DNA from: Armatimonadota bacterium
GTDB taxonomy: Bacteria > Armatimonadota > UBA5829 > DTJY01
Reading direction: 5' to 3'
DNA length: 64,000 nt
NCBI GenBank assembly: GCA_017993055.1
Contig: JAGONM010000020.1
Location: 4,075 to 68,074, forward strand
A program made the translations under genes and the position numbers. The notes under the pieces were generated by a model, which made no database searches, was not told the origin of the DNA, and saw only the letters and a program-made list of their open reading frames with translations. Within the stretch, counting starts at the first letter, position 1. Each line of letters opens with the position of its first letter. Shown one piece after another: positions 16,888 to 50,230 of this stretch.

Positions 16888-16926
16888 CGGTCAGACATGT
16901 CCGACGCGTCCGACCGGTCCAGACCG
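16888..16926. repeat. Family A array: four GTCNGAC heptamers at 9-bp spacing
   Basis: GTCAGAC(16890) GTCCGAC(16899) GTCCGAC(16908) GTCCAGAC(16917). Starts 2 nt after the thiL stop and overlaps the ATG of tsaE. Confidence 0.6.
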
Positions 16927-17397
16927 AAATGGGGCGCCAGCTTGAAGACCCTCGCCTTCCATACGACCGGCCCCGAGGAGACCGAGGCGCTCGGCGAGCG
17001 GATCGGGCGCGCGCTCGAGCCGGAGACCGTCGTCGCGCTGTTCGGCGGACTCGGCGCGGGGAAGACCACGCTTACCAAGGGGATCGCGCGCGGCCTCGAC
17101 GTGCCGGACCTCGTCCACAGCCCGACGTTCACGCTGATCCACGAGCACAAGGGCCGGATGTGGGTCTACCACTTCGACCTCTACCGGCTCGACGATCCGG
17201 CGCAGCTTCTCGACCTCGACTACGAGGACTACGTATACGGGCCGGGAGTCACCATCATCGAGTGGGCAGAGCGCGCCGGAAGCCTTCTGCCGTCCGACCG
17301 CCTCGAGGTCCGCATCACAGGCGAGGACGAAGAGCGCACCTTCGAACTGACTGCTACCGGCCCGCATGCCGAGGCGGTCATCGATAGGCTGGGTTAG
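16897..17397 (+). CDS. tsaE: tRNA threonylcarbamoyladenosine biosynthesis protein TsaE
   Basis: ALFGGLGAGKTTLTKGIARGL P-loop and HSPTFTLIHEH motifs. Start is uncertain: ATG 16897 or TTG 16932. Confidence 0.75.
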   Translation: MSDASDRSRPKWGASLKTLAFHTTGPEETEALGERIGRALEPETVVALFGGLGAGKTTLTKGIARGLDVPDLVHSPTFTLIHEHKGRMWVYHFDLYRLDDPAQLLDLDYEDYVYGPGVTIIEWAERAGSLLPSDRLEVRITGEDEERTFELTATGPHAEAVIDRLG

Positions 17398-17465
17398 CCT
17401 CTCGTTATGCCCTGCGGGCTACTCGAGGAGATCGGCGGTTATGCTCACGGGGAAAGAACCGCCTA

Positions 17466-17510
17466 GTCTCGAGTAGGTTTCTCCGGAAACCATATCGAGA
17501 GACGGTCAGG
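17466..17510. repeat. Family D repeat (GTCTCGAGTAGGtTTCTCCGGAAACCaTATCGAGAGACGGTCA)
   Basis: 45 of 47 nt identical to the copy at 55611-55657. Internal inverted repeat around the TCCGGA palindrome. Confidence 0.6.
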
Positions 17511-17527
17511 TATAGCCGATGGTTGTG

Positions 17528-17580
17528 CTGCAAGGCCGCCCTTCGATACGATGCTGTGCATCACTCAGGGCTGACGGGTT
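17528..17580. repeat. Partial Family R110 copy (right half)
   Basis: ctgcaaggccgcccttcgatacgatgctgtgcatcactcagggctg aligns to the right half of 10052-10150. Confidence 0.45.
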
Positions 17581-17599
17581 CCAGTACTTCACCACTACA

Positions 17600-18481
17600 T
17601 CACTCCAGCCCCAAGCCCAGCAGCCGGTTTGCGTTTCTCCAGCCGATCTTCTCGCACGCCTCGCGGGAGATCGTGCCGTCCCTGCGCGCGCCGCGGAGGA
17701 AGTCCGCCAGCGGCGTCTCCGTGTCCGGCGAGGCGATGTCCGTCCCGAAGTACAACCGGTCCTGGAACTCCTCCGTGAATGAGTAGCAGAACTCCGCGTC
17801 GCGGCTGAGGGCGTTGAACCCGCTGTTGGCCGACAGGTCTCCGTGCAGGTTCGGGTACTTCCGCATCAACTCGACGACTCGCCCGGGCGTAACCTTGCCC
17901 TTAGGGTAGCCGTTCCGCGTCTCATTCGTCACGTCGGCGCTGATCTCCGCCCAGAACGGCTGCGAGTGGCCGAGGAAGATCAGCTTCGGGAACTGCTTCA
18001 GCGTCTTCTCGAGCCGGGGGAGGCCGAGGTCGTCAATCAGCCCGTAGCACCCGCCGGCTCGCGGCCCGATGTGGAAGGTCAGCGGCATCCCGGCCTTCTC
18101 GCACTGGCCGAGCATGTTCCAGACCATCGCATCGTCGAACGGCATGTTCGCGGTGATCTCGCCGACGCCTCTGCACCCCGCCTTCTTGTAGTATTCGAGC
18201 AGAGGCATGAAGTCGGCGTCCGGCGAGTTCTTGACCATCCGGGGGTCGAGGTTGCAGAACGGTATGAACCGGTCCGGATGCCGCGCCGCGATCTCGATGA
18301 CGTCTTCCGGCGTCACCCTGCGGTGAGCGTACTCCGGGCTTATCGCGGGAAGCAGGACGGCCTTGTCAATCTTCGACTCGTCGAGCTTCTCGAGGAGCTG
18401 CTCCGGAGTGCAGTATGTCCTCCCGTTCGGCCTGGTGACGGTCGCGGTCGGCGTGACGTGGGTGTGGATGTCTATGAGCAT
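17600..18481 (-). CDS. Amidohydrolase family (TIM-barrel metal-dependent hydrolase) protein
   Basis: Starts MLIDIHTHV; GGAGG RBS 8 nt upstream of the ATG at 18481. The ORF-track N-terminal 52 aa look like a spurious extension. Confidence 0.6.
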   Translation of the reverse strand: MLIDIHTHVTPTATVTRPNGRTYCTPEQLLEKLDESKIDKAVLLPAISPEYAHRRVTPEDVIEIAARHPDRFIPFCNLDPRMVKNSPDADFMPLLEYYKKAGCRGVGEITANMPFDDAMVWNMLGQCEKAGMPLTFHIGPRAGGCYGLIDDLGLPRLEKTLKQFPKLIFLGHSQPFWAEISADVTNETRNGYPKGKVTPGRVVELMRKYPNLHGDLSANSGFNALSRDAEFCYSFTEEFQDRLYFGTDIASPDTETPLADFLRGARRDGTISREACEKIGWRNANRLLGLGLE

Positions 18482-18533
18482 GATGATGCCTCCTCTATCT
18501 ACTTCGACGCATCGGCGGCGAAACCTCGTGCTG

Positions 18534-18566
18534 CGTCTGATCCGACGCGTCCGACCGGTCTGATAC
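18534..18566. repeat. Family A array in a divergent intergenic region
   Basis: gcGTCTGATCCGACgcGTCCGACcgGTCTGAtac, between the amidohydrolase start (18481) and the URO-D-like start (18618). Confidence 0.55.
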
Positions 18567-18617
18567 AATGGAGGGGCAGGGCCCTCCGGCGGCGTACTAA
18601 GTCCTTGGAGAGCCTGC

Positions 18618-19757
18618 ATGAAATCCTGCGAACGCATACTTGCGGCGATCGAGAAGCGGCCCGCGGACCGCGTCCCGATCTACCACGCATCCATATCCTC
18701 CCGCACGGCATCCATGTTGCTGCAGAGGGAAGCCCACGTCGGTGGAGGGATTCAGCAGTACAGGGAGGCGGTCGCCCTCTGGAACGGCGAGGACGCCCAC
18801 CGCGAGTTCCTGGCGCGCACTCGCCGGGACACCATTGACGTCGCGGAAGCCCTCGACTGCGACCTCGTTCGCCCGACCTACTGGCGCATGAATGAGAAGC
18901 CGTCGCGCCGGATAGACGACAACACCTTCTTCTACGGCCGCGAGGATTCGGCGTGGCGCATCATGCGCTTCGATGCCGACAGCGAACTCTACCAGACCGT
19001 AGAGCACTCTCCCAGGGCCGAGTTGACCGAGGAGTCGCTCGAGGCGCAGATCGGCCGGATGTGGGAGCGCCTCGACGGCTATGACCCTGCGGACGAGACG
19101 CACCGCGACATCGTCGAGATCGTCCGGCGCTTCGAGGGACACCGCGCAGTCGCGCTGCAGGGCGGCGGTCTGGGCATCCCGAACCGCACGACAGAGTGGT
19201 TCGAGATGATCGCCTTGCGGCCCGACCTCATGAAGCGCTACATCGAGGTTCAGGCCGAGTACACGCTCAAGCGCATAGACTCCTTCGCCGGCGTCGCTGC
19301 CCGGATCATGCTCGGCGGCGGCGACATGGCGTCGAACGACGGGCCGATCTACTCGCCGAGGTTCTTCGCGGAGGTGATGGCCCCGGGTTTCGAGCGGCTG
19401 GCCGACCGGTGCCGCGAGCTGGGCAAGACGTACTGCTTCGCCAGCGACGGCAACCTCTGGCCGATTGCGGACGACCTCTTCCCGGTCGTAGACGGCTTCT
19501 ACGAGATAGACAGCCGCGCGGGCATGGACCTCCGGCGGCTCAGGGAGGCATACCCGCATCTGACCCTGATCGGCAACATCAGCTCCCACACGCTGCACAT
19601 GGGCTCGAAGGACGACGTAGTTGCCGAGACCCGGTCGTGCCTCGAGGCGGCGAAGGAACTCGGCGGCATCATCGTCGGCGTCTCGAACCTGATCGTCCCC
19701 GCGACGCCCGAGGAGAACTTCTTCGCCATGGTCGAAACGCTGGCGAATGAGAGGTAG
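18618..19757 (+). CDS. URO-D/MtaA-like family protein (paralog 2)
   Basis: MKSCERILAAIEKRPADRVPIYHAS. GGAGAG RBS. Confidence 0.5.
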   Translation: MKSCERILAAIEKRPADRVPIYHASISSRTASMLLQREAHVGGGIQQYREAVALWNGEDAHREFLARTRRDTIDVAEALDCDLVRPTYWRMNEKPSRRIDDNTFFYGREDSAWRIMRFDADSELYQTVEHSPRAELTEESLEAQIGRMWERLDGYDPADETHRDIVEIVRRFEGHRAVALQGGGLGIPNRTTEWFEMIALRPDLMKRYIEVQAEYTLKRIDSFAGVAARIMLGGGDMASNDGPIYSPRFFAEVMAPGFERLADRCRELGKTYCFASDGNLWPIADDLFPVVDGFYEIDSRAGMDLRRLREAYPHLTLIGNISSHTLHMGSKDDVVAETRSCLEAAKELGGIIVGVSNLIVPATPEENFFAMVETLANER

Positions 19758-19760
19758 TAC

Positions 19761-21704
19761 ATGGATTTCGCACGCATTCTCTGCATCGCAATGCTGGCCC
19801 TCGCCGCGGCGGCCTGCGCCGGCACGGTCGAACCCCTGCGGAAAGAGCACCCCTACCTCTTCATCGAGCGGTCGGATGTCCCCGGCATCAAGGACCGGGC
19901 CAGGCGGTTCGACTGGGCCGCCGGCACTCTCGACGCCCTGAAGACCCGCGCCGACGGGTGGCTCCGCCGGAAGATCGAAGTGCCGCCCTCGACTGGCAGG
20001 CACTCCGTCAGCTATGTCTGCAGCGAGTGTATGGAGCCTCTCGAGACGCTCTCTCCGACGGAGCATCGCTGCCCGAAGTGCAGGAAGGTCTACTCCGGCC
20101 TTCCATACGATGCCCATCTCTATAACGGTCGGCACGACGAACTCGCTGCGGCCGCGCGCGATCTCGGTCTGGCGGCCCTGTTCTTCGACAACAAGGCCTA
20201 CGCGAGCAGGTCTCTCCGGATACTGCTGGGGTACGCGGATACATACGACAGCTACCCACTGCTCGACAACCGGGGAGGGCAGGCCGTATCCGCCGCAAGG
20301 GTTTTCGATCAGACGCTGAACGAGGCGATCTGGCTGATTGACATCGCCTGGGCCTACGACCTCGTGCTCGGCGCGGGAGTCGGCAGTCCCGCCGAGCGCG
20401 CCAAGGTAGAAGGCTTGCTTCGGAAATCGGCCGAGACCGTTCAGCGCTACAACCCTCTCAAGAGCAACTGGCAGAGCTGGCACAACGCCGGGCTGATCTG
20501 CGTCGCGCTATGCCTGCGAGACGAAAAGCTGCTCGACAAGGTGCTGAACGGCGACGGCGGGTTCTACTACCAGATGGAGCACAGCGTCCTCTCCGACGGA
20601 GCATGGTACGAGGGGTCCTGGTCCTACCATGCCTACACGATGTCCGCCCTGCTGAGGACCTCCGAGGCCGCCGTGCGCTCCGGCATTGACCTCTACAAGT
20701 CTCCACAGCTCAAGAAGATGCTGGAGGCGCCGCTCAGGTGCCTGATGCCGAACGGCAGGGCCCCCGCGACTAACGACGGGATGGAGCAGGGCGCGAGCGC
20801 CGGCCACTACGAGGTCGCCGCCGCCCGATACGGCGGCCCGATGTTCGAAGACGTCGTCGCCAGGGGGAAACGCGCCGGGTACGATGCGCTCTTTATCGGC
20901 CTGGAGAACCCGAAACGCCGCCCGAGCGCGCTCGGGAGCGACGTCATGGAGGGCATCGGCCTTGCGCTGCTGCGCCGGGGCGATCAGTTCGTCTCTCTCG
21001 ATTTCGGCCCTCACGGCGGAGGTCACGGACATCTGGACAAGCTCGCGGTCAACTACTTTACGCTGGGACGGACCGTCGCGCCCGATCTCGGCCGTGGATG
21101 GCCGTACAACCTACCGATCCATGTGCAGTGGTATAAGAAGACGCTCTCCCACAACACCGTCACCGTTGACGAGATGCCTCAGAAGGAATGTGAGGGCAAG
21201 CTCGAATCACGCGACTTCGAAGGCGACTGCCACACCGCGACGGCCTCCGCCGATGCGGCCTACGACGGCGTCAGCCTGCGCCGGACGGTCGCTCTCGGCG
21301 ACACCTGGCTGCTCGATATCTACGAGGCCTTGAGCGACGCCGAGCACACCTACGACTGGGTGTGGCACGGCCGTGGGGATTTCTCCACCGCGTTGCCGAA
21401 TGCTCCCGCCGAGATGGAGTTCACCCAGCCGAGCTACTCATACCTCAGCAACATTCGGCAGGGCGACGGCTCGAATGACTGGCGCGCGGCGTGGAAGCCG
21501 GAGGGCGGCACGGTCTACGGGCTGTTCAGGGGTGCGTCGGGCCGGGACGTCATCCTCTGCGACGCGCCCGACAACCCGCGGACGAACACGCTCCACAGCG
21601 TGATACTTCGCGACCGGGCGAAGCGGTCGGTCTTCGTCTCGCTGTTCTCCACGAGGCCGATGGACTGGCAGGATCTACCCGCCGAACTGCGGCGGAATCT
21701 CTAG
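19761..21704 (+). CDS. Secreted heparinase II/III-like (alginate-lyase-superfamily) protein with Cys4 cluster
   Basis: Signal peptide. CSECMEPL...CPKCRKVY Cys4 motif. Alpha/alpha-toroid-like region followed by beta-sandwich, 647 aa. Family assignment is tentative. Confidence 0.3.
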   Translation: MDFARILCIAMLALAAAACAGTVEPLRKEHPYLFIERSDVPGIKDRARRFDWAAGTLDALKTRADGWLRRKIEVPPSTGRHSVSYVCSECMEPLETLSPTEHRCPKCRKVYSGLPYDAHLYNGRHDELAAAARDLGLAALFFDNKAYASRSLRILLGYADTYDSYPLLDNRGGQAVSAARVFDQTLNEAIWLIDIAWAYDLVLGAGVGSPAERAKVEGLLRKSAETVQRYNPLKSNWQSWHNAGLICVALCLRDEKLLDKVLNGDGGFYYQMEHSVLSDGAWYEGSWSYHAYTMSALLRTSEAAVRSGIDLYKSPQLKKMLEAPLRCLMPNGRAPATNDGMEQGASAGHYEVAAARYGGPMFEDVVARGKRAGYDALFIGLENPKRRPSALGSDVMEGIGLALLRRGDQFVSLDFGPHGGGHGHLDKLAVNYFTLGRTVAPDLGRGWPYNLPIHVQWYKKTLSHNTVTVDEMPQKECEGKLESRDFEGDCHTATASADAAYDGVSLRRTVALGDTWLLDIYEALSDAEHTYDWVWHGRGDFSTALPNAPAEMEFTQPSYSYLSNIRQGDGSNDWRAAWKPEGGTVYGLFRGASGRDVILCDAPDNPRTNTLHSVILRDRAKRSVFVSLFSTRPMDWQDLPAELRRNL

Positions 21705-21736
21705 GTGACAAAATCGGATCCGGAGGTGATCGCGGC

Positions 21737-22960
21737 ATGGCCGAACTCACGAGTGTTTCCCCGAACGAGAGGATCAGGATCGGATGTATCGGAGTCGGCG
21801 GGATGGGCACCGGCAACATGAAGAGCTTCATGAACCATCCAGAGGTCGAGGTGGTCGCCGTCTGCGATGTGGACTCGGACAATCTCAGAAAAGCCTCGGC
21901 GACGGTCTTGAAGAAGTCCGGCAGGCTCCCGAGGGCGGTCAAGGACTTCCGCGACGTTCTCGATATGAAGGAGGTAGACGCGGTGGTGATCGCCACGCCC
22001 GACCACTGGCATGCGCTGCCCTTCATCATGGCGTGCGAGGCGGGCAAGGACGTCTTCTGCGAGAAGCCGATCTCGCACGACATCTGGGAGGGCCGCCAGA
22101 TGGTCGGGGCGGCGAAGCACCACAAGCGTGTCGTGCAGATCAACACCTGGCAGCGTAGCGTTCCTCACTTCAGGGATGCGATAGACTTCGTACGCGAGGG
22201 CGGAGCCGGCAGGATCAGGGTATGCCGCGCATGGATCACGAGTATCGGCGGGCTGGGCAGGAACCCGATCAAGGACCCGCCGGAGAACCTCGACTGGGAC
22301 TTCTGGTGCGGGCCTGCGCCGAGGGTGCCCTACCACGATACCTACCATCCGCGCTGGTGGCGGCTCTACTACGACTTCGGCACCGGACTCGCCGGCGACT
22401 GGGGCGTGCACATGGTTGATATCGCGCTCCTCGGCATGAACGCTACTAGTCCGCTCGAGGTCTCCTCAGTCGGCGGGAAGATCGTCGCGGGCGAGGACGA
22501 CGATCGCACCACCCCGGACACCCAGATGGCGGTCTACAAGTTCGACGGCTGGGTGATGAACTGGGAGCTTCACGTCGGCGGCGAGGGGCTCGACGGGAGC
22601 AAGAACTCCCACGGTACGGAGTTCGTCGGCGAGAAGGGCAAGCTGATCGTAGACCGCGGCGGCATCAATTGGACCCCGTTCGGCGATCACCCCGGCCCCG
22701 AGGCGAAGAACCCGAAGCGCGACCACATCGGCGAGTTCCTGGCCAACATGAAGACCCGTGAAAAGTGCGTCTCGGACATCGAGTCCATGTACTACACGAC
22801 GACGGCCTGCCACCTCGCTAACCTGTCGTACCAGGCGGGACGGAGCATCAAGTGGGACGGCGCGAAGGGTGAGGTCGTCGGCGACCGGAAGGCGATGGAT
22901 TTCCCGGCCTATCGGCGCGAGTACAGGAAACCTTGGAAACTGCCGGTGTACAAGGCATGA
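21737..22960 (+). CDS. Gfo/Idh/MocA family oxidoreductase (cytoplasmic paralog A)
   Basis: IRIGCIGVGGMGTGNM Rossmann motif and EKPISHDIWEG. GGAGG RBS before the ATG at 21737. The ORF-track start at 21491 overlaps the upstream gene and is rejected. Confidence 0.7.
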   Translation: MAELTSVSPNERIRIGCIGVGGMGTGNMKSFMNHPEVEVVAVCDVDSDNLRKASATVLKKSGRLPRAVKDFRDVLDMKEVDAVVIATPDHWHALPFIMACEAGKDVFCEKPISHDIWEGRQMVGAAKHHKRVVQINTWQRSVPHFRDAIDFVREGGAGRIRVCRAWITSIGGLGRNPIKDPPENLDWDFWCGPAPRVPYHDTYHPRWWRLYYDFGTGLAGDWGVHMVDIALLGMNATSPLEVSSVGGKIVAGEDDDRTTPDTQMAVYKFDGWVMNWELHVGGEGLDGSKNSHGTEFVGEKGKLIVDRGGINWTPFGDHPGPEAKNPKRDHIGEFLANMKTREKCVSDIESMYYTTTACHLANLSYQAGRSIKWDGAKGEVVGDRKAMDFPAYRREYRKPWKLPVYKA

Positions 22961-22966
22961 GGAAAC

Positions 22967-23021
22967 GGTGGAGTAGTGGAGTGATAGAGAACCCGGAAGC
23001 CCGGCGCTCCACCACTCCACC
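22967..23021. terminator. Candidate bidirectional terminator / long inverted repeat between convergent genes
   Basis: GGTGGAGTAGTGGAG ...25 nt... CTCCACCACTCCACC (14 of 15 bp complementary). Confidence 0.4.
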
Positions 23022-23032
23022 ATTCCATTCGC

Positions 23033-23548: not shown

Positions 23549-23556
23549 ATTTCACC

Positions 23557-24072
23557 TCATTCCGCAGCGGCGGCGGGCGGTGTGAACACCCGCTGCCCAA
23601 GCTCGCGATCGATCATAAACATACCGTTTGGAGCGTCCTTCAGCAGCTTGATCTGCTCGAGAATGCCGCTCGCGTTCTTCTCTTCCTCGACCTGCTCCGT
23701 CACGAACCACTGAAGCACCGAGTTGGTCGCGTGGTCGCGCTCCTCGATCGCCAGGTTCACGAGGTCGTTTATCAGCGCCGTCACCTTCTGCTCGTGCTTG
23801 TACGTGTCTTCGAACGGCGCGATCGGCGACTTCCAGTCGGTCGGCGGCTTCTCGATCGCGGTCAGGATGGCTCTCCCCCCGCGAGCGTTGATGTAGTCGT
23901 ATATCTTCATCGCGTGAAAGGTCTCTTCCTGGTACTGAACGCGCATCCAGTTGGCGAAACCCGGCAGGTTGACTGACTCGTAGTAGGCGGACATTGACAG
24001 GTAGAAGTACGCCGAGTACAACTCCGCGTTCACCTGCTTGTTCAGTGCGTCCTGCATCTTCTTGCTCAGCAT
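23557..24072 (-). CDS. Non-haem ferritin
   Basis: [17 protein letters not shown]...[13 protein letters not shown] is classic Ftn. Confidence 0.75.
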
Positions 24073-24177: not shown

Positions 24178-24243
24178 GGGCGGGAGTACAACTCCCGCCC
24201 TGGCATGCTCTCTACGTTGGGGCAGGAGTTGTACTCCTGCCCC
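24178..24243. repeat. Family H hairpins x2 (GGGnnGGAG-pentaloop-CTCCnnCCC)
   Basis: GGGCGGGAG-TACAA-CTCCCGCCC (24178-24200) and GGGGCAGGAG-TTGTA-CTCCTGCCCC (24219-24243). Confidence 0.6.
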
Positions 24244-25789: not shown

Positions 25790-27171
25790 GCGCCCAGCGA
25801 CTTCTGCCACTTCTGTACCGCAGCTGTCAATTCGGATGTCAGTTCCGGATGCTCGTCGGCGAGATTCGTCCTCTCGCCCGGATCGGCCTCCAGGTCAGAC
25901 AGGTGTACGTCATCCGCCGCGCCTTTCTCGAAGTCAATCCTGCCGTTGAGCACCAGCTTCCACTTCCCCTGGCGGACGGCGAGCTGGCCGTTGTAGTCCC
26001 AGAAGACCCGCTCGTGCGGGCTCGGAGCACCGGATGTCACCATCGGAAGGACGTCGGCCCCGTCAACGTCCTCCGCTTCTCCGCCCGCAATCCCGAGGAA
26101 CGTCGGGAAGATGTCCATCATCGCGCCGACCTTCCCGCAGGTCTGCCCCGCCTCGATGCGCGCGGGCCAGGTCATGATCGCCGGCATGCGGATTCCGCCC
26201 TCGAACAGGCTGCCCTTTTGCCCGCGGAAGATGCCCGTGCTGCCGCCGTAGTACGGGTCCTCCGTGCCGTCGAGCCAGTTGCGGGTCTCCACGGACGGCC
26301 CGTTGTCGCTGGAGAAGAAGATGACGGTGTCCTCGTATTGCCCCGACTTCTTGAGCGCCTTGATTGTCTCGCCGACGCCGTCGTCCACCGCGGAGATCAT
26401 CGCGGCCATGATCCGCTTGTCCCACGGCAGGTCGGGGTAGCGGTCGAGGTACTTCTGAGGCGCGTGCATCGGGTAGTGCGGTGCGCTGTACGGCACGTAC
26501 AGGAAGAACGGCTCTTCGCGCTTCTGCTCGATGAACTTGACCGACTTTTCGGTGATGGCCTCGGTCAGATACCTCCCGTTGTCCCATACCTCCCGCTCGT
26601 TGTGCCAGAGATCATGGGTCGGGTTGTTGCCCTTGCCGACCCCCCAGTAGAAGATGTGCGAGTAGTAGTCTACGCACCCGGCCAGGAAGCCGTAGAACTC
26701 GTCGAACCCGTGGTCGTTCGGGCGGCATCCGCCCGCGAGGCCGAGGTGCCACTTGCCGAACATCGCCGTCCGGTACCCGAGCGGCCTGAGCGCCTTCGCA
26801 ATCGTGGTCTGATCGGGCTTGAGGCCGGGTGTGTCCCTCCGGCCCGCGAGGATGCTCGTCACCCCGGCGTTCTGGGGGTACTTTCCGGTCAGCAGCGACG
26901 CCCTCGACGGCGAGCAGACCGGGCAGTTCGAGTACCAGTTCGTGAACCGCGCGCCGTCCTTCGCCAGCGCATCGAGGTGCGGCGTCTTGATGTACTCCGA
27001 GCCGAAGCAGCCCAGGTCGCCGTACCCGAGGTCGTCGCAGTAGATCACGACGAGGTTCGGCTTCTTCCCGCGCTCACTCGCGCCGATCGCCTCAGACATA
27101 CTCATCCCTCCCAGCGCGGCCGCCGCCGCCGATGTCTTCAGGAACGTTCTTCTGTCCAAAGTCATCCCCAT
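25786..27171 (-). CDS. Cys-type sulfatase with Tat signal
   Basis: MGMTLDRRTFLKTSAAAAALGG Tat signal. CSPSRASLLTGKYP sulfatase signature. The ORF-track N-terminal Arg-rich 200 aa is spurious. Confidence 0.85.
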   Translation of the reverse strand: MGMTLDRRTFLKTSAAAAALGGMSMSEAIGASERGKKPNLVVIYCDDLGYGDLGCFGSEYIKTPHLDALAKDGARFTNWYSNCPVCSPSRASLLTGKYPQNAGVTSILAGRRDTPGLKPDQTTIAKALRPLGYRTAMFGKWHLGLAGGCRPNDHGFDEFYGFLAGCVDYYSHIFYWGVGKGNNPTHDLWHNEREVWDNGRYLTEAITEKSVKFIEQKREEPFFLYVPYSAPHYPMHAPQKYLDRYPDLPWDKRIMAAMISAVDDGVGETIKALKKSGQYEDTVIFFSSDNGPSVETRNWLDGTEDPYYGGSTGIFRGQKGSLFEGGIRMPAIMTWPARIEAGQTCGKVGAMMDIFPTFLGIAGGEAEDVDGADVLPMVTSGAPSPHERVFWDYNGQLAVRQGKWKLVLNGRIDFEKGAADDVHLSDLEADPGERTNLADEHPELTSELTAAVQKWQKSLGA

Positions 27172-27201
27172 CCTGTCCGACCGGTCAGACAAGTCGGACT
27201 C
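27172..27201. repeat. Family A array bridging a stop codon and a start codon
   Basis: GTCCGACcgGTCAGACaaGTCGGAC at 9-bp spacing. Overlaps the stop of the 27185 gene and ends 1 nt before the sulfatase ATG (27171). Confidence 0.6.
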
Positions 27202-32820: not shown

Positions 32821-32856
32821 CATAGGTCCCGTGGGACTCATGGGCCCCATGCCGGC
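32821..32856. repeat. Family B array
   Basis: CATAGGTCC CGTGGGACT CATGGGCCC CATGCCGGC, between the esterase stop (32866) and the fucosidase start (32802). Confidence 0.55.
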
Positions 32857-38004: not shown

Positions 38005-38023
38005 GGTGTGCCTCCAGTCAAAT

Positions 38024-43060: not shown

Positions 43061-44596
43061 CTACGGCCTCGCCGGCTTCCAGCCGGCTCTAAGCTGCTTG
43101 CTTAGCTGCGCAACGACCTCCCTGCTCTCCGGCAGGCCGGCGACGTTGATGTTTCCGCCGGGGTCGGTCTTGTAGTCGTAGAGCTCGACGGCCGCAGCCT
43201 CGCCGGTGTCTCTATTCTGCCACTCGGTGTAGCGGTAGCGGTCGGTCCGCATCGAGTAGCCCATGATGTTTCCGGGACGCGGATACTGGCTGAACGCGGC
43301 CTTCTTCCACTCGCGCGTCGGTTTGTCCATGACAGGTCTGAGACTGATCCCCTCGCAGTGCTTGGGGACCGGCACGCCCGCAAGGTCGCAGATCGTCGGG
43401 TAGATGTCCACGAACTCCGCGAGCGCGTCCGTTTTGGCGCCCCTGTTCTTCTGTCCCGGCGCGCTTATGATGAGCGGCGCGCGGGTTGCGATCTCGAAGT
43501 TGGTGTGCTTGCACCAGAGGCTGTGCTCGCCGAGGTGCCATCCATGATCGCCCCAGAGCACGATCACCGTCTTGTCGCGCAGGCCGAGCCTGTCGAGTTC
43601 GTCCACGACCCGGCCGATCTGAGCGTCCGAGTAGCTGGTGGCCGCGTAGTACGCGCGAATCAGCTCGCGCGCCCTGGCGTTGTCCATCGGGCCTACGTCC
43701 GGGATGTCGGTGTATGCTCGAAGCTCCGCCCAGTTGGTGAGCGCCTGAGACGGCGCGTCCTTCGGCGGAAAGCGGTTCGGCGCGAGTTTGATGTCCTTCG
43801 GGTCGTAGAGATCGAAGTACTTCTTCGGCGCGTTGAACGGCAGGTGCGGTTTCAGGAAGCCGCACGCGAGGAAGAACTTCTGATCTTTGACCCCTCGCAG
43901 GGTCTCGATGACCTTGTCCGCGGTGACGCCGTCCGGGTACGCGTTGTCCGGCACGTCGGCGTCCTCCCACGCCGGGCCCTTCAGCTTCGCGGCGTTCGTG
44001 GCGATTCTCAGCGCGAGACCTGTCTCGGGATCCCTCTCGACCACTTCGTCCTTGAGGTTGGCTCCCCTGGCCTTGAGCTGCGCCGCCATCTCCTTGCGGG
44101 CGGCGATGCTCTCAGGCTTGAGGTAGTGAGGCGCGCCGGGATTCCAGTGCGGCTCAGACCATGAAGCCGGGTCGTCGAGGCCCGGGTGGTATATCTTGCT
44201 GAACCCGAGTGACCGGTAACCGCGCTCTTTAAACAGTTGCGACAGGGTGACCGCGTCCGGCAGGAACTTGCGGAAGTGGTCCTCCAGGTTGTAGATCTTG
44301 GTGGTGTCGGGACGGCATCCCGTCATCACGGAAGTTCGCGACGGGCTGCACACCGCCTGCTGGCAGTATGCCCGGTTGAAGAGCGTCCCGCTAGCGGCCA
44401 GCTTGTCTATGTTCGGCGTCTTGATGGTCGGCGCGCCGTAGCATCCGAGCGTCGGCCGCAGATCGTCCACGACGATGAAGAGCACGTTGTACCTGCCCTG
44501 TTCCGCCGCTTCCGCCAGTCCGGATGCGAGCCCGGCCATCCCTGCGTAAGCCCCGGCCATCATCCCCGTCCTCAGGAAATCACGCCTCGTCAGCAT
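43061..44596 (-). CDS. Cys-type sulfatase with Tat signal (close paralog of 41498-43036)
   Basis: MLTRRDFLRTGMMAGA Tat signal. CSPSRTSVMTGCRPD signature. Confidence 0.85.
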   Translation of the reverse strand: MLTRRDFLRTGMMAGAYAGMAGLASGLAEAAEQGRYNVLFIVVDDLRPTLGCYGAPTIKTPNIDKLAASGTLFNRAYCQQAVCSPSRTSVMTGCRPDTTKIYNLEDHFRKFLPDAVTLSQLFKERGYRSLGFSKIYHPGLDDPASWSEPHWNPGAPHYLKPESIAARKEMAAQLKARGANLKDEVVERDPETGLALRIATNAAKLKGPAWEDADVPDNAYPDGVTADKVIETLRGVKDQKFFLACGFLKPHLPFNAPKKYFDLYDPKDIKLAPNRFPPKDAPSQALTNWAELRAYTDIPDVGPMDNARARELIRAYYAATSYSDAQIGRVVDELDRLGLRDKTVIVLWGDHGWHLGEHSLWCKHTNFEIATRAPLIISAPGQKNRGAKTDALAEFVDIYPTICDLAGVPVPKHCEGISLRPVMDKPTREWKKAAFSQYPRPGNIMGYSMRTDRYRYTEWQNRDTGEAAAVELYDYKTDPGGNINVAGLPESREVVAQLSKQLRAGWKPARP

Positions 44597-44606
44597 GGTG
44601 TCGCTC

Positions 44607-45599
44607 CTACTTCGTCCTCTGAACCAGAGGCAGGACGTTCGCCTCGATCGCCGCGTCGCCCTTCGACGGCTTGACGCCCTTGAACAGGTGCCAGCTCTCT
44701 ACCAGAGTGGCGCTCTCGCCCGGATCGAGTTTCGTGAGCGGCCCGAGGTCCTCCACCTCCATGAAGTTGCCGTCGGTGTAGGTCTCGAAGTTGCATCCGA
44801 AGTCCGGGTAAGCCGCGCCTTCGACATACGGGAAACTCTTGACGAACAGCAAATCGCCGAGTTGATACGCCGCCCAGCCCTGCTTGTTCGCCACGCCGAT
44901 CTTCTGCGGGATGCCGGCGCGCTTCTCGTCGGTGCTGAGCGTGACGTACTTCGCCCCGAACCCCCAGCGCGGGTCGCTCAGGTCGGTATAGTGCCAGAGC
45001 GTCATCGGCCTTGCCGGGAGCAGCTCGTCGTCGTGCGATATGAAAGGCTCCTGCGGGATGATCGTAGTGCCGCCGCCCGCGACTATCGTGAGACCCCACG
45101 GCGCGAGTTCTATCGGCCAGTGGCAGGCGTTGGTCAGCTTCTGAGTCAGGGTGACCTTCGTGCCCTCGGGGTCGAGCCGCACCAGCATCTCCCGCTGGAC
45201 GCGCGCCGGGCCGAGCTTGGGAGTGAGTCGGATCGAGTCGCCGCCGACTATCTCGAAGGCGACCGGCTCGTCGTCCGGCTCGTAGGTGCGGGGGAGCGAC
45301 TCGGGCGCGTGCCAGAGCCGGTGCCCTCCCCACGGGTGCCATTCCCCGAACTCGGTCTTGTTGACCGCGTCTTTGGTCATCTCGGCCAGGATGTTCTTTC
45401 CTCCGGCGAACCGGTAGCCGATCACCCTCGGGCCGATGTCCGTCGTCACGATGACGTCCACCGTGCCGTTGGAGAGCTTGTAGCAGTTGGGTTGGTTGAA
45501 ATACGGTATCTTCTCGATGTTCACCTTTGAGGCTCCTGTCGTGGGGATCGCGGCCAGCGCCGCCAACGCTCCCAGTAATACAGACACGCGAAAACGCAT
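44607..45599 (-). CDS. Secreted hypothetical protein
   Basis: ATG 45599 with GGGAGGGACGACA RBS. Signal peptide MRFRVSVLLGALAALAAIP. The ORF-track extension to 45746 is rejected. Confidence 0.4.
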   Translation of the reverse strand: MRFRVSVLLGALAALAAIPTTGASKVNIEKIPYFNQPNCYKLSNGTVDVIVTTDIGPRVIGYRFAGGKNILAEMTKDAVNKTEFGEWHPWGGHRLWHAPESLPRTYEPDDEPVAFEIVGGDSIRLTPKLGPARVQREMLVRLDPEGTKVTLTQKLTNACHWPIELAPWGLTIVAGGGTTIIPQEPFISHDDELLPARPMTLWHYTDLSDPRWGFGAKYVTLSTDEKRAGIPQKIGVANKQGWAAYQLGDLLFVKSFPYVEGAAYPDFGCNFETYTDGNFMEVEDLGPLTKLDPGESATLVESWHLFKGVKPSKGDAAIEANVLPLVQRTK

Positions 45600-45709
45600 T
45601 GTCGTCCCTCCCTCGATCGGTTCAGAGTTCGACGTTTCAAGGCCATTTTCGCCGCGTCGGATCGTCTGTCCTTTCTCGCTGCTCAAGACGCGCCGGCCGC
45701 CGAGATTGT

Positions 45710-46591
45710 TCAGGCGGTCTTCTCGGGGAAGAACGGGTTCGTCCACGCCCGGTTCCCGTTCCCGTCCACGACCTCCACGCGCAGGTAGTCGAGCATCGGG
45801 CTGAACTGCGCCTCGGCGGAGGTGAGCGGCTCGCCGTCAGCGTAGAACACCCGGCCGGTGGAGCGCCTTCCCACGAAGTGAATCTCCTTCGCCGGGGAGC
45901 ACCTTACCTTCAGCCTGCCGTCCTCCAGCCGCGCGTCCTCTATGGTCGGGCCGGTGGATGCGTAGAAGCATCCTTTCCTCAGCGCATCCATTACCGGCCC
46001 GACGGCGAGGCTCTCCGCCTTGATCATGGTCCATCCCATGAAGATGTCGCGTCCCCGATGGCAGTCGTCCACCGCCACCGCCGGGAGGAGCTTGCCCGCG
46101 TCCAGCAGGTCGTCCCACTGCACCGAGCTGAACCCCTTGCCGATCTTGGTGCAGGTGGCGTTGTAGACCTCGACGGCGATCGCGCCCTCTATCGGCATCA
46201 GGTGGCTGATGTTGTGGCCGCACCAGTACGGGTGGGCGATGATGACCTCTCCGCCGGCCTCGCGGACCATGTTGATGCGGGCCTGAGGGTCCGGCTCCTC
46301 CTGGAGTTCCAGCCCGTGCGGGACGTTCAGGCAGACGAAGTGGTACGGGTCGGCGTCCGGGCAGAGGGGGTGCGTCTCCATCCCGCTGATGACCAGCAGG
46401 CCGTCGCATGAGAGGCCGGCCACATCGTTCGTCTTGTTGTGGTCGGTGATCGCGAGGACATCGTATCCTCTCTCGCGGTACCGGCCGATCCGCTCCGCGG
46501 CGCAGGCATCCCCGTCGGAGATGGTGGTGTGCGTGTGAAGATTGGCCTTGTACCAGTTGCCGGGCGCGTCGAACGGGTTCGTGAACTGCAT
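45710..46591 (-). CDS. PHP domain (CehA/McbA-like) metal-dependent phosphoesterase
   Basis: ANLHTHTTISDGD and AITDHN PHP motifs. Confidence 0.6.
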   Translation of the reverse strand: MQFTNPFDAPGNWYKANLHTHTTISDGDACAAERIGRYRERGYDVLAITDHNKTNDVAGLSCDGLLVISGMETHPLCPDADPYHFVCLNVPHGLELQEEPDPQARINMVREAGGEVIIAHPYWCGHNISHLMPIEGAIAVEVYNATCTKIGKGFSSVQWDDLLDAGKLLPAVAVDDCHRGRDIFMGWTMIKAESLAVGPVMDALRKGCFYASTGPTIEDARLEDGRLKVRCSPAKEIHFVGRRSTGRVFYADGEPLTSAEAQFSPMLDYLRVEVVDGNGNRAWTNPFFPEKTA

Positions 46592-47617
46592 CTATCTCCT
46601 CTTTGTCGGCGGCGCCGATGCCAGAAAGACGCAGGCCTCGCGCACGCGGGTAATCTGATCGGGGGTCACCGTCAGGTAGCGGTGCCTGCCCTTCTCGTCG
46701 GCTGTGAATCTCGTGACGTTCTTCTCGTCCATCGTGATCCTGCCGTTCGGCGAGACTCCGAAGTAGCCCCTGTCCGGGCGGACGGCATAGAGGACCGCCG
46801 TCAGGTCCCAGGTCGGGCGGTCGTACGGCATCTTCATGTACGCCCGGTAAGCCTCGGCGACCGGGTGGTTCTTCACCCACCCGTAGTCCTTCTCGATGCT
46901 CTCGGCAGGGTAGAGTATCGCCGCCCCGATCTCGAACCCGCTCGCGGCGATCGGCGTAGGCCAGCGCTCGAAGACCCGGCGCGCGGACTCGGCGTCCTGC
47001 ACCACGTTGTACTCCCCGCCCGGGTCCGGCCCGAAGGCCCCCGCCATCATCACGTACTCCCGAACCTTCGCCTTCACGAGTTCCATGCCGGTGAGCGGCG
47101 ACGCCTTGTCCGGCTTCGAGTCGAGCAGCCGCGCGAGGTTCGTCATGAAACCGACGCTCACGATGACAACCGACCCGTCCGGCTGGGCGGCGAGGGTCTT
47201 GCGGAGAAGGCTCACCGCCTCCGGGGCGTCCGCGCCCGACCCGAGCCTACGGGGGTACGCGAACGCCTTTCCGTCCCTGCGCTCCGCCACGACCCTTGCG
47301 TATCCGTCGTCGGGAGTCTTGCCGTCTCGCACCGTGCCGATCGGCGTCCTCGGCCTGCCGTAGAAACGGTTGACCACGTCCACGTAGACCCCCGCCCACG
47401 GGTTGTCCTTGCTCACCGTCACGGCCAGCAGCTCGACCTCGCCCCGGTCAGCCAGCGTGTGGATCATCGCCAGAGCGAGCGCGTCGTCTATGTCGTTGCC
47501 GATGTCGGTGTCGAATATCATCTTCACGGGCGCGCCCGCCGCTCCCTCACAGCAGTTCATCGTCAGACCTCCCAGGGCGAGGATTCCCAACACGAGGCAC
47601 GTCGCTCTCATCCCCAA
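46592..47617 (-). CDS. Nucleoside hydrolase (IU-NH family)-like protein, secreted
   Basis: IFDTDIGNDIDDALAL aspartate-cluster motif. Signal peptide. Confidence 0.55.
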   Translation of the reverse strand: MGMRATCLVLGILALGGLTMNCCEGAAGAPVKMIFDTDIGNDIDDALALAMIHTLADRGEVELLAVTVSKDNPWAGVYVDVVNRFYGRPRTPIGTVRDGKTPDDGYARVVAERRDGKAFAYPRRLGSGADAPEAVSLLRKTLAAQPDGSVVIVSVGFMTNLARLLDSKPDKASPLTGMELVKAKVREYVMMAGAFGPDPGGEYNVVQDAESARRVFERWPTPIAASGFEIGAAILYPAESIEKDYGWVKNHPVAEAYRAYMKMPYDRPTWDLTAVLYAVRPDRGYFGVSPNGRITMDEKNVTRFTADEKGRHRYLTVTPDQITRVREACVFLASAPPTKRR

Positions 47618-47624
47618 CCGCCTT

Positions 47625-48257
47625 TCAGACCCTTTCCGGCTTCGGCTCGGCCGGGCCGTGCGCGTGCTCCCAGAGGTGGCCCGGACGCTTCGCGCCTTCC
47701 ATCGTCGTCTCGAAGAAGACCGCCGCCCCCGGCTCGATCACCCTCTGCACGTCGTGGTGATGGCCCATCCCGGTCGCCACGCAGTCCCCGGGCCCGACCT
47801 CGAAGGACTTCCCCTCCGACACCGCGACGCACCGCCCGCTGAAGAAGATCCAGTACTCGTCGCAGTCGTGGAAGTGGTTGTCGAAGCTGGTCGTCTTCGG
47901 GTACTCGGTCTTGTCGCCCCGCTCGACCGGGTTTTCGTCGTTCCACACGGGGAAAATGCCCGAGCCGCCGACTTCGTCGCCCCACCGTCCGCACATGCGG
48001 ATGAGGACGGCCTCCTCGGTGACGTCGGTCACCTCGAAATGAGCGCCGGGCGCAAGGTCGAGGTTCGCGTTGGGTTCGGCGTCAACCGCCCGGCCGCCGG
48101 ACGACACCCTGCACTTCCCGCCGCAGACGATGAGCTTTTCCCTCTCGCCGACCCGCTCGAAGACCTTCGTCTCGCCGGGAGCGAGACGAGTGACGTCGAA
48201 ATACTCCATCTCGCACCACGAGGGCGCGAGTCCCTTCCCGGACCTGAATACCGGCAT
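47625..48257 (-). CDS. Cupin domain protein
   Basis: Two cupin-like beta-barrel segments. HHHD metal-ligand-like motif. Confidence 0.4.
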   Translation of the reverse strand: MPVFRSGKGLAPSWCEMEYFDVTRLAPGETKVFERVGEREKLIVCGGKCRVSSGGRAVDAEPNANLDLAPGAHFEVTDVTEEAVLIRMCGRWGDEVGGSGIFPVWNDENPVERGDKTEYPKTTSFDNHFHDCDEYWIFFSGRCVAVSEGKSFEVGPGDCVATGMGHHHDVQRVIEPGAAVFFETTMEGAKRPGHLWEHAHGPAEPKPERV

Positions 48258-48299
48258 GTGCTGCCTCCATCTGGATTCGCGGCGATCATCCGCCGCCGG

Positions 48300-49400
48300 T
48301 CAGTATACGCATTCCCTCAAGGCGTCCGCGAATGCCTGCAGGTTCTCCGGGTCGCCGTGGAAGAAGTGGTCGCTCGGACAGCAGATGTACCCGCCGTTCG
48401 GGCATGCCGCGTGCAGTTCATGGACCATCTCCCTGACGATCTCCGGCGTCCCGTGCTCGAAGCCGCGGTTCTGGTCGAACCCCCCGACGAAGAACAGCCT
48501 GTCGCCCACCAGCTTTTCGGCCAGCGCCAGATCGCAGTCGGCCCCCATGCTCGGCGGAGTCATCGTCTCCAGCCCGTCCGAGCCGTTCGCGGCGACGAGG
48601 TCGAGCATCTTCATCAGCCCGCCGCAGAGGTGGTAGACGACCTTGTACCCCGCCGCGTGGAGCGCGTCAACCTGCTGTCTGTCGTAAGGCAGGCAGAACT
48701 CCTCGTGGAGCTTCGGGCTTATGACCGTATTCGATCCCGCGCCGCCGCCAAGCTCGATCAGGTCGAGAGGGACCTCGCCGGCCATCATTTCGACGACCTT
48801 CAACTGCTTTGCGACTATCGCCTGCTCGACGTGATGCACCCACTCCGGCTCGTCCACCGCGAACATGATCGCCTCCTGGGTGCCGACCATGAAGCAGAAG
48901 CTCTGCCACGCCCCGACCTGCCCGTAGCTCCACAGGCCGCCCCTCACGATCCCCCTGTCGCCGAGCCTCTCCAGGCACGCCTTCACCGGCGAGCCGTCCA
49001 CGCCGCTGGGCACGGGGAAGTACCGGTCGAACAGCTCGAAGTCCCGCTTCGTCTTGATCAGCGGCTCGGTCGTCCACGGCGTGATCTCGCTGGCAGCCCC
49101 CGCGGTGTGCAGTTCGCCGCCGGGCGTCCTGATCGTCTGGGTCCAACTCCGGACGCCGTCCGCGTCCGTGCCGAGGTCGGTGTGCTCGACCTGCCAGTTC
49201 GCAAGGTCGCGCTCGTCGTACGACCATTTCGGCCCGACGTAGATCGCCATGTCGAGCCCGAACCGCTCGTAGGCTTCGAACTGGTCAACGCCGCCGAGGT
49301 AGTGCTGCAGGTAGTGCGCCATCCAGCCGTGAACCTGCCCCGGCAGGCGGTCGGGCTTGCCGTTGTTGATGGCGGTGAGCATTCGTTCCCGCGGACTCAT
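48300..49400 (-). CDS. URO-D/MtaA-like family protein (paralog 3)
   Basis: MSPRERMLTAINNGKPDRLPGQVHGW. Confidence 0.5.
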   Translation of the reverse strand: MSPRERMLTAINNGKPDRLPGQVHGWMAHYLQHYLGGVDQFEAYERFGLDMAIYVGPKWSYDERDLANWQVEHTDLGTDADGVRSWTQTIRTPGGELHTAGAASEITPWTTEPLIKTKRDFELFDRYFPVPSGVDGSPVKACLERLGDRGIVRGGLWSYGQVGAWQSFCFMVGTQEAIMFAVDEPEWVHHVEQAIVAKQLKVVEMMAGEVPLDLIELGGGAGSNTVISPKLHEEFCLPYDRQQVDALHAAGYKVVYHLCGGLMKMLDLVAANGSDGLETMTPPSMGADCDLALAEKLVGDRLFFVGGFDQNRGFEHGTPEIVREMVHELHAACPNGGYICCPSDHFFHGDPENLQAFADALRECVY

Positions 49401-49415
49401 GGTTCGTCGTCCTTC

Positions 49416-50183
49416 CTAGAGTGCGTGGTCGTCCGCCTCAGCGTCAATATGGCCGATGACCTTGTCGCCGTTCAGGAACTCGATGCGGCCGTCCTTGTAG
49501 CGCACGCGGACCTTGCCGTCGTCGTCGAGAGCGATATCGTGCCCGTGCATGTGGATGCCGGTGCCGTACTTGCCTGCCACGTCGAGGCCGGTTTCACCGA
49601 CCCCGTTCAGTCCGATGCCTTTGTCCACATGCCCCTCGCCGTGGACCTGGATGCCGTACTGCATCGGCTCTCCCGGGAGCATCTGGATGTTCAGCCCGAT
49701 CATCTGGGTCGAGTCGGGCCCGGTGTAGCGGTTCGTCATCTCGATGTTCATGCCGAGCGCGACCGCCCGCCCGTGATTGAAGACCTCCGAGTGCAGACCG
49801 CACGACCACCCCGGCCCGTTCTTGGTCAGGCGGGAGCAGAGGACGCACGCGTCGCCGCCCGTGTGGTGGGTGGTCAGGTGCGAATAGATCGTCCAGGGAT
49901 AGGAGGTGCCGTTCCCCTTCTGCTCGTGCATCAGCGAGAGAATCTCCTGGGTGCCGACGGTCCCGGTGGTCTCGTCGGACCGCTCGAAGCGTATCATGGT
50001 GTCGAGCGGCTCCATCGGCGGGCGTCCCTTGTAGACGCTGCTCTTGAGCACCTGGCCCTCGGTCGTGAGCGGGCCTTCCTCGGTCTGCGGTGTGTCGGCG
50101 GCGAGCGCCTTCCGTCCGAGCAGCCCTCCCGCGAGTGCGAGCAGCCCTCTCACGATGAAGTTCCTGCGGCGTGACGTGTCCAT
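49416..50183 (-). CDS. Tat-secreted hypothetical protein, His/Gly-rich
   Basis: MDTSRRRNFIVRGLLALAGG Tat motif. Repeated GxHxxGxG segments. GGAGGTACCA RBS. Confidence 0.4.
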   Translation of the reverse strand: MDTSRRRNFIVRGLLALAGGLLGRKALAADTPQTEEGPLTTEGQVLKSSVYKGRPPMEPLDTMIRFERSDETTGTVGTQEILSLMHEQKGNGTSYPWTIYSHLTTHHTGGDACVLCSRLTKNGPGWSCGLHSEVFNHGRAVALGMNIEMTNRYTGPDSTQMIGLNIQMLPGEPMQYGIQVHGEGHVDKGIGLNGVGETGLDVAGKYGTGIHMHGHDIALDDDGKVRVRYKDGRIEFLNGDKVIGHIDAEADDHAL

Positions 50184-50194
50184 TGGTACCTCCA

Positions 50195-50230
50195 GTCAGA
50201 CGAGTCATAAATATCGGACGGGTCTGACTA
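50195..50230. repeat. Family A array (degenerate)
   Basis: GTCAGAC ga GTCATAA at ATCGGAC gg GTCTGAC with 9-bp spacing. Overlaps the GH2 stop (50228-50230) and lies 12 nt upstream of the 49416 gene start. Confidence 0.45.

Follow-up and report, generated by a model that had tools for sequence, protein, structure and literature searches.

Phased GTC-N-GAC arrays between genes of an Armatimonadota bacterium, possible binding sites for a dimeric protein

A 64,000-nucleotide stretch of the genome of an Armatimonadota bacterium (GenBank assembly GCA_017993055.1, contig JAGONM010000020.1, positions 4,075 to 68,074; hereafter the window) carries five short intergenic arrays, L1 to L5, in which the dyad-symmetric heptamer GTC-N-GAC recurs with a 9-bp period. 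Their general form is (GTCNGACNN)3-4, that is, three or four phased units. A constrained dyad core, free centre and spacer bases, the 9-bp phase, the lack of pairing between units and the restriction to non-coding DNA together point to recognition by a sequence-specific factor. The favoured reading, built by analogy and given a probability of about 0.35, is that the arrays may be phased sites for a dimeric DNA-binding protein, growing and shrinking in 9-bp units.

Five arrays with a nine-base-pair period

L1 (16888-16926; GTCAGAC-AT-GTCCGAC-GC-GTCCGAC-CG-GTCCAGAC) lies in the gap between thiL and tsaE, and its fourth unit (GTCCAGAC) carries a 1-nt insertion. L2 (18534-18566; GTCTGA[4-nt deletion]TCCGAC-GC-GTCCGAC-CG-GTCTGAT) is found, partly decayed, in a divergent spacer. 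L3 (27175-27199, within the locus 27172-27201; GTCCGAC-CG-GTCAGAC-AA-GTCGGAC) lies at the junction of a DUF3604 stop and a sulfatase start, L4 (38024-38059; GCCCGAC-GC-GTCCGAC-GT-GTCTGAC-GT-GTCGGAG) in the spacer from a second sulfatase gene to a gene for a 721-aa protein, and L5 (50195-50230; GTCAGAC-GA-GTCATAA-AT-ATCGGAC-GG-GTCTGAC), with degenerate middle units, in the spacer from a GH2 gene to a gene for a 255-aa protein. All five had been reported by a first-pass annotation and are present where it placed them. Its description of the spacing as strict is accurate for the intact units and too strong for the fourth unit of L1, the 4-nt deletion of L2 and the middle units of L5.

The window was scanned with a phased-array score of three GTCNGAC units at 9-bp spacing and at least 15 of 18 core bases. 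Nine positions pass, all of them within exactly these five loci, and the same score at periods of 7, 8 and 10-15 bp returns 0-1 matches. Second-order Markov simulations (300 in total) give a mean of 0.11 loci and a maximum of two against the five observed, so that a chance origin, with an excess confined to period 9, is rejected. A motif-blind scan for three units with at least six of nine columns invariant likewise recovers 10 period-9 loci (0.45 expected) and 0-2 at periods of 7, 8, 10, 11 and 12 bp; three of the 10 are GTCNGAC arrays and five belong to a second family, GTCCCAT-NN. The arrays hold at least three head-to-tail copies of a unit of at most 11 nt, above chance, as short tandem repeats do, and Tandem Repeats Finder detects just two of the five.

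The single heptamer is not enriched in the window (31 observed, 36 +/- 6 expected), and therefore only phased arrays count. Two single units that had been listed alongside the arrays, at 10009 and 56800, do exist, in spacers that also contain other short palindromic repeats, but heptamers occur at background frequency and these two are left out of the family. The gene map used here follows the gene calls of contig JAHZTK010000910.1 of a metagenome-assembled genome (MAG), GCA_020047475.1, labelled Armatimonadetes bacterium at NCBI. Intergenic DNA amounts to ~4.3 kb of the 49.7 kb mapped (8.7%) and holds all five arrays, an outcome with a probability of ~5e-6 by chance. Occurrence at background frequency with no positional bias does not hold for the arrays, and the proposed non-randomness and intergenic bias stand.

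A constrained core beside free positions

Of the 114 core bases of the window arrays, 101 agree with GTC.GAC (~89% intact); of the 42 centre or spacer positions compared between adjacent units, 32 differ, the random level. Given the chance expectation above, randomised free positions beside kept cores are not what chance would leave of decayed duplicates. Nor are whole units near-identical, as those of slippage repeats are. The conservation of the core points to sequence-specific constraint, not to a slippage repeat in decay.

The same contrast is seen elsewhere; counts from other genomes and from viral contigs are, throughout, among the matches listed. In 136 arrays of other genomes, the mismatch rates between adjacent units at the three free positions are 35%, 49% and 47%, and half-decayed flanking units keep core positions better than free ones. 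Three control palindromes, GACNGTC, CTGNCAG and GCTNAGC, put through the same search in viral contigs, yield mainly identical-unit arrays (60/67, 24/39 and 52/71) with a centre-base mismatch of 0.03-0.06. For GTCNGAC, identical-unit arrays number 79 of 138 in viral contigs (mismatch 0.19) and 28 of 136 in genome contigs (mismatch 0.35). Since the controls are near-identical, the degenerate-N pattern is specific to GTCNGAC and is no product of the search method. Many of the viral matches are collagen-like Gly-Pro-Thr coding repeats (GGTCCGACN), which do not account for the window arrays; with such frames removed the viral totals are less striking, at 48 matches for the target and 38 for the swapped control.

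These figures bear on the main alternative, rated somewhat unlikely, in which the arrays are tolerated or selfish micro-repeats, formed by 9-bp duplication in place (through slippage or through nicking and fill-in) and kept where harmless, with no host function, in which they would resemble the long simple sequence repeats and the short tandemly repeated repetitive (STRR) heptamers of cyanobacteria. Duplicates decaying neutrally cannot yield random free positions beside a largely intact core, and the near-identity of the control palindromes argues the same way. The arrays also have nothing in common outside the core, so they are not copies of a master element, and a mobile element of that kind is rejected. 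Footprints of a transposase with 9-bp target-site duplication are rejected too, as duplicates would share their free bases, and so is a diversity-generating retroelement (adenine mutagenesis of a GTCAGACAA template), the A of GAC being invariant. What speaks for micro-repeats comes from the turnover of the arrays, to which we return below.

Gene context and tests of an RNA-level role

The five window arrays sit between metabolic genes, and in four of the five cases the array ends 3-19 nt ahead of a start codon or adjoins a Shine-Dalgarno sequence. The orientation of the motif relative to starts is not readable, GTCNGAC being its own reverse complement. The earlier claim that arrays abut both a stop codon and the downstream start is borne out by L1, L3 and L5; as regards the stop codon it fails for L4, which lies 152 nt from the upstream stop.

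L1 begins 3 nt past the thiL stop (TGA 16884-16886) and occupies the gap up to tsaE. The called tsaE start, ATG 16897, falls inside the array, ATG 16929 is out of frame with tsaE, and homology with the TsaE of a relative begins at TTG 16942, so that L1 is either 5' untranslated region (UTR) or a 15-residue extension (MSDASDRSRPKWGAS). L3 overlaps the stop codon of the minus-strand DUF3604 gene and leaves 3 nt to the sulfatase ATG at 27171; read on the minus strand, it specifies some of the residues of the C-terminal extension QGVRLV of the DUF3604 protein and also supplies the stop (GTC TGA). L5 fills the 44-nt spacer from the GH2 stop (TAG 50230-50228) to the GGAGG and ATG 50183 of the 255-aa gene.

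The 255-bp spacer that separates the sulfatase gene (stop 38212) from the 721-aa gene contains L4, directly 5' of a GGAGG (38011-38015) and of TTG 38004, which is in frame. This TTG, not the called ATG 37956, is the probable start of the 721-aa gene: GGAGG stands 6 nt upstream of the TTG, and the residues added at the N terminus (MRYVLAAIVLLTAATS) are signal-peptide-like.

L2 occupies a 136-bp spacer between the divergent starts of an Amidohydro_2 gene (18481) and a URO-D-like gene (18618), ~52 nt from each. The same spacer contains a separate leader element upstream of the URO-D-like gene, made up of a hairpin GGAGGGGCAGGGCCCTCC and, after it, GGCGGCGTA (18572-18600). This element is also found in the related loci L392, L393, L394 and L395, persisting when the array beside it or the gene upstream is different, and may be a regulatory RNA or a protein-binding site.

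Proximity to start codons is the main attraction of an RNA-level role, in which GUC and GAC triplets in UTR or intercistronic RNA would be bound by a protein, or would form weak alternative hairpins, and so affect coupling, processing or stability. Other features suit it as well. In the predicted hairpin of L3, the stop codon is paired with the GGACAGG that immediately precedes the AUG; spacers of every type, convergent ones included, are transcribed, and a self-complementary motif reads the same either way; and short intergenic direct repeats beside start codons have a precedent (PMC4679880).

Structure does not bear this out. The arrays have predicted folds of -16 to -28 kcal/mol, with z scores of only -0.03 to -1.5 against dinucleotide shuffles, and they fold as RNA because any such array is quasi-palindromic. 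In the 136 arrays of other genomes, 23 of the 463 pairs of adjacent centre bases show Watson-Crick complementarity (136 expected) and 300 share the same base (140 expected), the opposite of the pattern left by selected hairpins. A selected RNA or DNA hairpin is therefore rejected, as folds are no better than shuffles and no compensatory pattern appears. No Rfam family matches the arrays, either in the window or in 18 other loci, and a known RNA family is rejected on that ground. The sole Rfam match within the window is a thiamine pyrophosphate (TPP) riboswitch upstream of thiC (14131-14244, plus strand; RF00059, 68 bits). Moreover, dyad symmetry is a hallmark of double-stranded DNA recognition rather than of single-stranded RNA, and distances to starts vary without consistency among the arrays of other genomes. 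The RNA-level option of the first-pass annotation thus keeps its positional argument and loses its structural one, and it is regarded as distinctly unlikely. Its suggestion of an internal promoter is weakened, with no sigma-70-type site near the two arrays examined. Near these there is likewise no intrinsic terminator (a G+C-rich hairpin with a T run), and a sigma-70 promoter or intrinsic terminator is rejected as an explanation, neither being detected there.

Distribution in other genomes

An exact search for three units in species-representative genomes returned at least 120 stretches. Arrays with non-identical units occur mainly in Bacteroidales (28), Verrucomicrobiota (18), Lentisphaerota (16), other members of the Planctomycetes-Verrucomicrobia-Chlamydiae (PVC) group (6), Armatimonadota (6) and Hydrogenedentota with allied phyla (5). 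Those of Actinomycetota are mostly identical-unit repeats and probably coding. Two arrays of a Prevotella contig span exactly the whole of their spacers between co-directional genes, an arrangement like that of the window.

Crude calls based on open reading frames (ORFs) proved misleading in loci of high G+C content, where they misplaced arrays inside long spurious ORFs, and were rejected. The phase of G+C at third codon positions (GC3), validated on the window, was used instead. Among 88 arrays in loci of at least 55% G+C, 59 adjoin non-coding DNA on at least one side by this test, and 14 lie in frame inside genes, mostly as Ser-Asp-X.

The in-frame cases raise the prospect that the arrays are live or relic coding sequence, namely Ser-Asp-X repeats (TCN GAC NNG) that extend the termini of neighbouring proteins and whose free positions would correspond to the third base of the Ser codon and to bases one and two of the X codon. 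In the window, such repeats share the frame of tsaE (MSDASDRS...), of the sulfatase (ESDLSDRSDRM...) and, beyond its stop, of GH2, and the gene caller begins tsaE inside L1. Orthologues lack these extensions, however, and L4 and L2 are outside the Ser-Asp-X frame of any neighbour. An invariant G at the wobble position of the X codon is unexpected in a genome of 64% G+C and is better explained by the palindrome, while GC3 phase places the arrays at frame boundaries. Taken together, a coding explanation of the window arrays is highly improbable.

Ser-Asp-X frames are found in their own right in Verrucomicrobiales, where arrays read in frame as SDxSDxSD in L019 (4481-4514), L058 (1239-1272), L061 (1877-1910) and L005 (6625-6658). 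Judged by eye, three of them lie in DUF1549-like proteins between 'LTGLPP' and 'YEKLV', and one in a loop of an apparent class I aminoacyl-tRNA synthetase.

Larger elements sometimes contain the motif. In the Lentisphaerae MAG SIG83 (L071, 680-1650), a scaffold of ~170-250 bp is repeated five times in tandem; its centre is (GTCTGACYT)4-5 except in one copy, where a short repeat of unrelated sequence (ACGGTAACTA type) takes that place, and because the centres vary the array occupies a variable slot inside a larger repeated element. Arrays of 8-9 units tip a long inverted repeat (TTTAACCCAAATC...GATTTGGGTTAAA) in Prevotella ihumii (L024, 1060-1165; L092, 2715-2835). With a predicted fold of -69 kcal/mol (z -9), this repeat looks like a miniature inverted-repeat transposable element (MITE) or a structured RNA.

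Phage contigs have 9-bp sets of their own. In L261/L283, TGTCCGACC occurs in direct sets of two and three followed by inverted sets of three and two. The sets of L261 precede a primase-like gene, and the TTGTCCRAC repeats of the L266 family precede terminase genes. These sets look like the layout of protein-binding iterons and count in favour of protein binding.

A candidate operator and its turnover

The favoured reading of the window arrays, as protein-binding sites, would work as follows. The 7-bp dyad-symmetric motif, repeated every 9 bp, would be bound as double-stranded DNA, and twofold-symmetric dimers would align side by side on successive units in the manner of ribbon-helix-helix proteins such as MetJ on met boxes. 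A bound array would act as an intergenic operator or roadblock, tuning read-through and the expression of the downstream gene. In the window the arrays are placed just past stops and just ahead of the next ribosome-binding site in catabolic operons, and in one case in a divergent control region. Dyad symmetry favours a double-stranded DNA target and a dimer. Half-sites are 4 bp apart and units 9 bp apart, and short spacing of this sort suits ribbon-helix-helix proteins lining up on tandem boxes. Protein binding, a dimeric or cooperative geometry, DNA rather than RNA as target and a regulatory effect are all what we infer from these features. Among the explanations proposed by the first-pass annotation, an operator fits the conserved dyad core with free centre and spacer bases, and a micro-repeat fits gain and loss between relatives.

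The DUF3604 and URO-D-like proteins served to find relatives. In L392, whose URO-D-like protein is 85% identical, the orthologue of L2 is intact, with four units, and better preserved than in the window (GTCTGAC-TT-GTCCGAC-GC-ATCCGAC-CG-GTCGGAC); L393 (98%) also has it, with a single change in the core. The divergent-spacer array is thus kept between lineages at 85% protein identity, and conservation at orthologous spacers, which the earlier annotation had asked about, is found for L2 in these two relatives and fails for L2 in L394 and for L3 in L391 and L392. Absence from such spacers in close relatives, which that annotation had named as evidence against its proposal, is thus seen in part.

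Several observations weigh against protein-bound operators. L2 is cleanly missing from L394 (84%), where the flanks can still be aligned; it is decaying both in the window, with 4 nt lost relative to the orthologue, and in L393; and between the window and L392 it is about as conserved as its flanks, not more. L3 is missing at the orthologous junction in L392 (17-nt spacer) and in L391, whose 150-nt spacer holds other hairpin repeats instead. None of the window genes encodes a transcription factor or other DNA-binding protein. Around two of the arrays no promoter of the sigma-70 type was detected, in a phylum whose own promoters are uncharacterised. The arrays adjoin stop codons and ribosome-binding sites, a position that would be apt for an element acting at the RNA level. 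Elsewhere some arrays lie between convergent genes, by the crude gene calls available there, a position ill-suited to a classical operator. Finally, the tandem families of the window all have periods that are multiples of three (6, 9 and 12), which is compatible with mere tolerance at gene boundaries. A GntR gene is also absent from the window, and a local regulator gene is rejected.

The arrays are evolutionarily mobile, coming and going between related genomes. Gain, loss, lengthening and shortening in 9-bp steps mean that individual sites turn over quickly, and the spacers of this clade are generally unstable. It is here that the micro-repeat alternative draws its strength. Array density is specific to the lineage, with five in the 64 kb of the window, one in 22 kb of L392 and none in 63 kb of L391, L394, L395 and L396, and both presence and absence are seen at orthologous spacers. 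In addition, no arrays occur in 435 kb of distant thiL loci from metagenomes (best matches 48-58% identical), and exact-protein look-ups for tsaE and the 255-aa protein returned no other strain. L1 occupies the junction at which the relative L125 has an ATGA overlap of thiL and tsaE. DUF3604 orthologues end in ...SPVWIS or 1-2 residues beyond, whereas the window protein ends in ...SPVWISQGVRLV, its six extra codons encoded partly by L3; the array has, on the micro-repeat account, overwritten the ancestral stop codon and supplied QGVRLV and a new stop. In other genomes, the sharing of centre bases and arrays that are all-purine or all-pyrimidine at the centre would follow from duplication and later transitions. 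Tandem families of period 6, 9 and 12 coexist in the window with palindromes of two further kinds, and the strain at 98% identity has a 145-nt repeat-bearing insertion at another junction; both are described in the next section.

Confidence in phased protein-binding sites stays near the value given at the outset in view of the dispensability of single arrays, the poor fit of arrays in convergent spacers and the lack of a known binder. A broader version, in which one conserved factor would read GTC-N-GAC every 9 bp in glycan degraders of the Armatimonadota, Verrucomicrobiota, Lentisphaerota and Bacteroidales, and the arrays would serve as intergenic 'punctuation' that sets read-through and cistron expression, is unlikely.

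If the arrays are protein-bound, they constitute a new and easily recognised cis-element in the operons of poorly studied, mostly uncultured glycan degraders, whose promoters, terminators and regulators are largely unknown, and the motif could then serve to trace the factor along with its regulon. If they are tolerated micro-repeats, they affect annotation, creating false start codons (tsaE) and new stops with C-terminal tails (DUF3604), and they show how overlapping or tightly coupled genes separate. Under either reading, the contrast between core and free positions is a clean and testable signature.

Other repeats of the window and its clade

The second 9-bp family, with the unit GTCCCAT-NN (ATGGGAC-NN on the other strand), is found at 8217-8258, 14031-14058, 32825-32851, 58555-58587 and 59634-59667 of the window, and at a different junction in the relative L391 (3262-3314). 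It lies mostly directly 3' of stop codons and reads GUCCCAU in the mRNA sense; at 8217 and 32825 it forms in-frame ATG-GGx repeats at gene starts. A GAGTAY family of hexamers and 12-mers (TACTCG on the other strand) precedes several start codons (9965-10003, 11021-11041, 52993-53046 and 62284-62316) and recurs in L395 (17290-17356) and L393 (2680-2705).

Palindromes are of two kinds. Repetitive extragenic palindromic (REP)-like hairpins, GGG(A/C)GGGAGTTGTACTCCC(T/G)CCC, occupy many spacers, among them 24178-24242 of the window, 9780-10000 and 11897-12046 of L391, 14781-14894 of L392 and 415-500 of L124. A MITE-like palindrome of ~120-150 nt (CCGTCAGCCCTGAGTGCGCC...GGCGTGTATCGAAGGGCGG and complement) is present at 62333-62456 and ~10040-10160 of the window and at 4627-4817 of L391.

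The insertion in L393 (2683-2830) extends from the stop of the URO-D-like gene, whose product is the one 98% identical to that of the window, to the ATG of an alginate-lyase gene, where the window has 3 nt (19758-19760). It combines a short tandem repeat with a palindrome (GTCATGCTGAAC...GTTCAGCATGAC), carries GGAGTAA repeats at one end and a related complementary stretch at the other, and is an insertion polymorphism of a MITE-like element.

Relation to known systems

Searches of the literature with the motif strings returned just FadR/LldR consensus sites and primers, and a search on tandem repeats in Verrucomicrobia returned nothing relevant. The first-pass annotation had called the motif unrecognised, and with no Rfam match and no relevant paper for the motif strings that judgement holds. 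No description was found of the motif, of its 7+2 architecture with a conserved palindromic core or of its spread across phyla; intergenic tandem repeats and operator arrays as such are already known.

Direct repeats of the heptamer TAACTGA occur in Beggiatoaceae, Cyanobacteria and Bacteroidetes, and in Beggiatoaceae those upstream of start codons have been proposed to act in RNA-level control (MacGregor, 2015; PMC4679880). Like the GTCNGAC arrays they are short (2-6 copies), intergenic, often a few nucleotides from a start and patchily distributed across phyla. Their units, however, are exact, asymmetric, 7 nt long and orientation-specific, whereas GTCNGAC units are 9 nt long, with a palindromic six-base core and three free positions. 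The cyanobacterial STRR heptamers and long simple sequence repeats (Mrazek, 2007, as summarised in PMC4679880) appear from that summary to be similar in their tandem short units, mostly non-coding location, abundance within a lineage and several families per genome; as slippage repeats they are described there as near-identical, in contrast to arrays that conserve the core only.

The published consensus of the FadR-type GntR operators contains GTCNGAC (PMC9329746, PMC10272880) and hence shares the 7-bp palindromic core. A FadR site is a single palindrome of ~17 bp with conserved TGGT...ACCA flanks; the arrays are phased and their flanks unconserved.

Iterons, known from the replication or packaging regions of phages and plasmids, have a likeness in the L261/L283 and L266-family phage contigs, which carry 9-bp units of this kind (TGTCCGACC, TTGTCCRAC) in sets of 2-3 and in both orientations. 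The phage units are near-identical and partly non-palindromic (GTCCAAC), and their sets lie in A+T-rich control regions beside primase or terminase genes, which the window arrays do not.

With REP sequences and bacterial interspersed mosaic elements (BIMEs), the arrays share an extragenic location (all five here), a quasi-palindromic character, a place between co-directional or convergent genes and rapid gain and loss, and REP-like hairpins (GGAGTTGTACTCC type) coexist with them in the clade. They differ in having neither a full-length consensus nor a GTAG/CGTC tag, since only the six core bases are common to the loci, and in being made of phased 9-bp units whose hairpins are no stabler than shuffled sequence.

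The closest parallel to the favoured reading is provided by the operator arrays of ribbon-helix-helix proteins, which include the met-box arrays of the gammaproteobacterial MetJ and those of omega, CopG and ParR. The met box (AGACGTCT) is 8 bp long, and in MetJ-type arrays one dimer binds each box and contacts its neighbours. Like met boxes, the GTCNGAC units are short, imperfect, dyad-symmetric boxes built from GAC and GTC triplets and set head to tail in contiguous runs of 2-5. The period is 9 bp instead of 8, the triplets are spaced by 1 and 2 nt instead of 0 and 2, and the window arrays lie past stops and before ribosome-binding sites within operons, whereas met boxes lie over the promoter.

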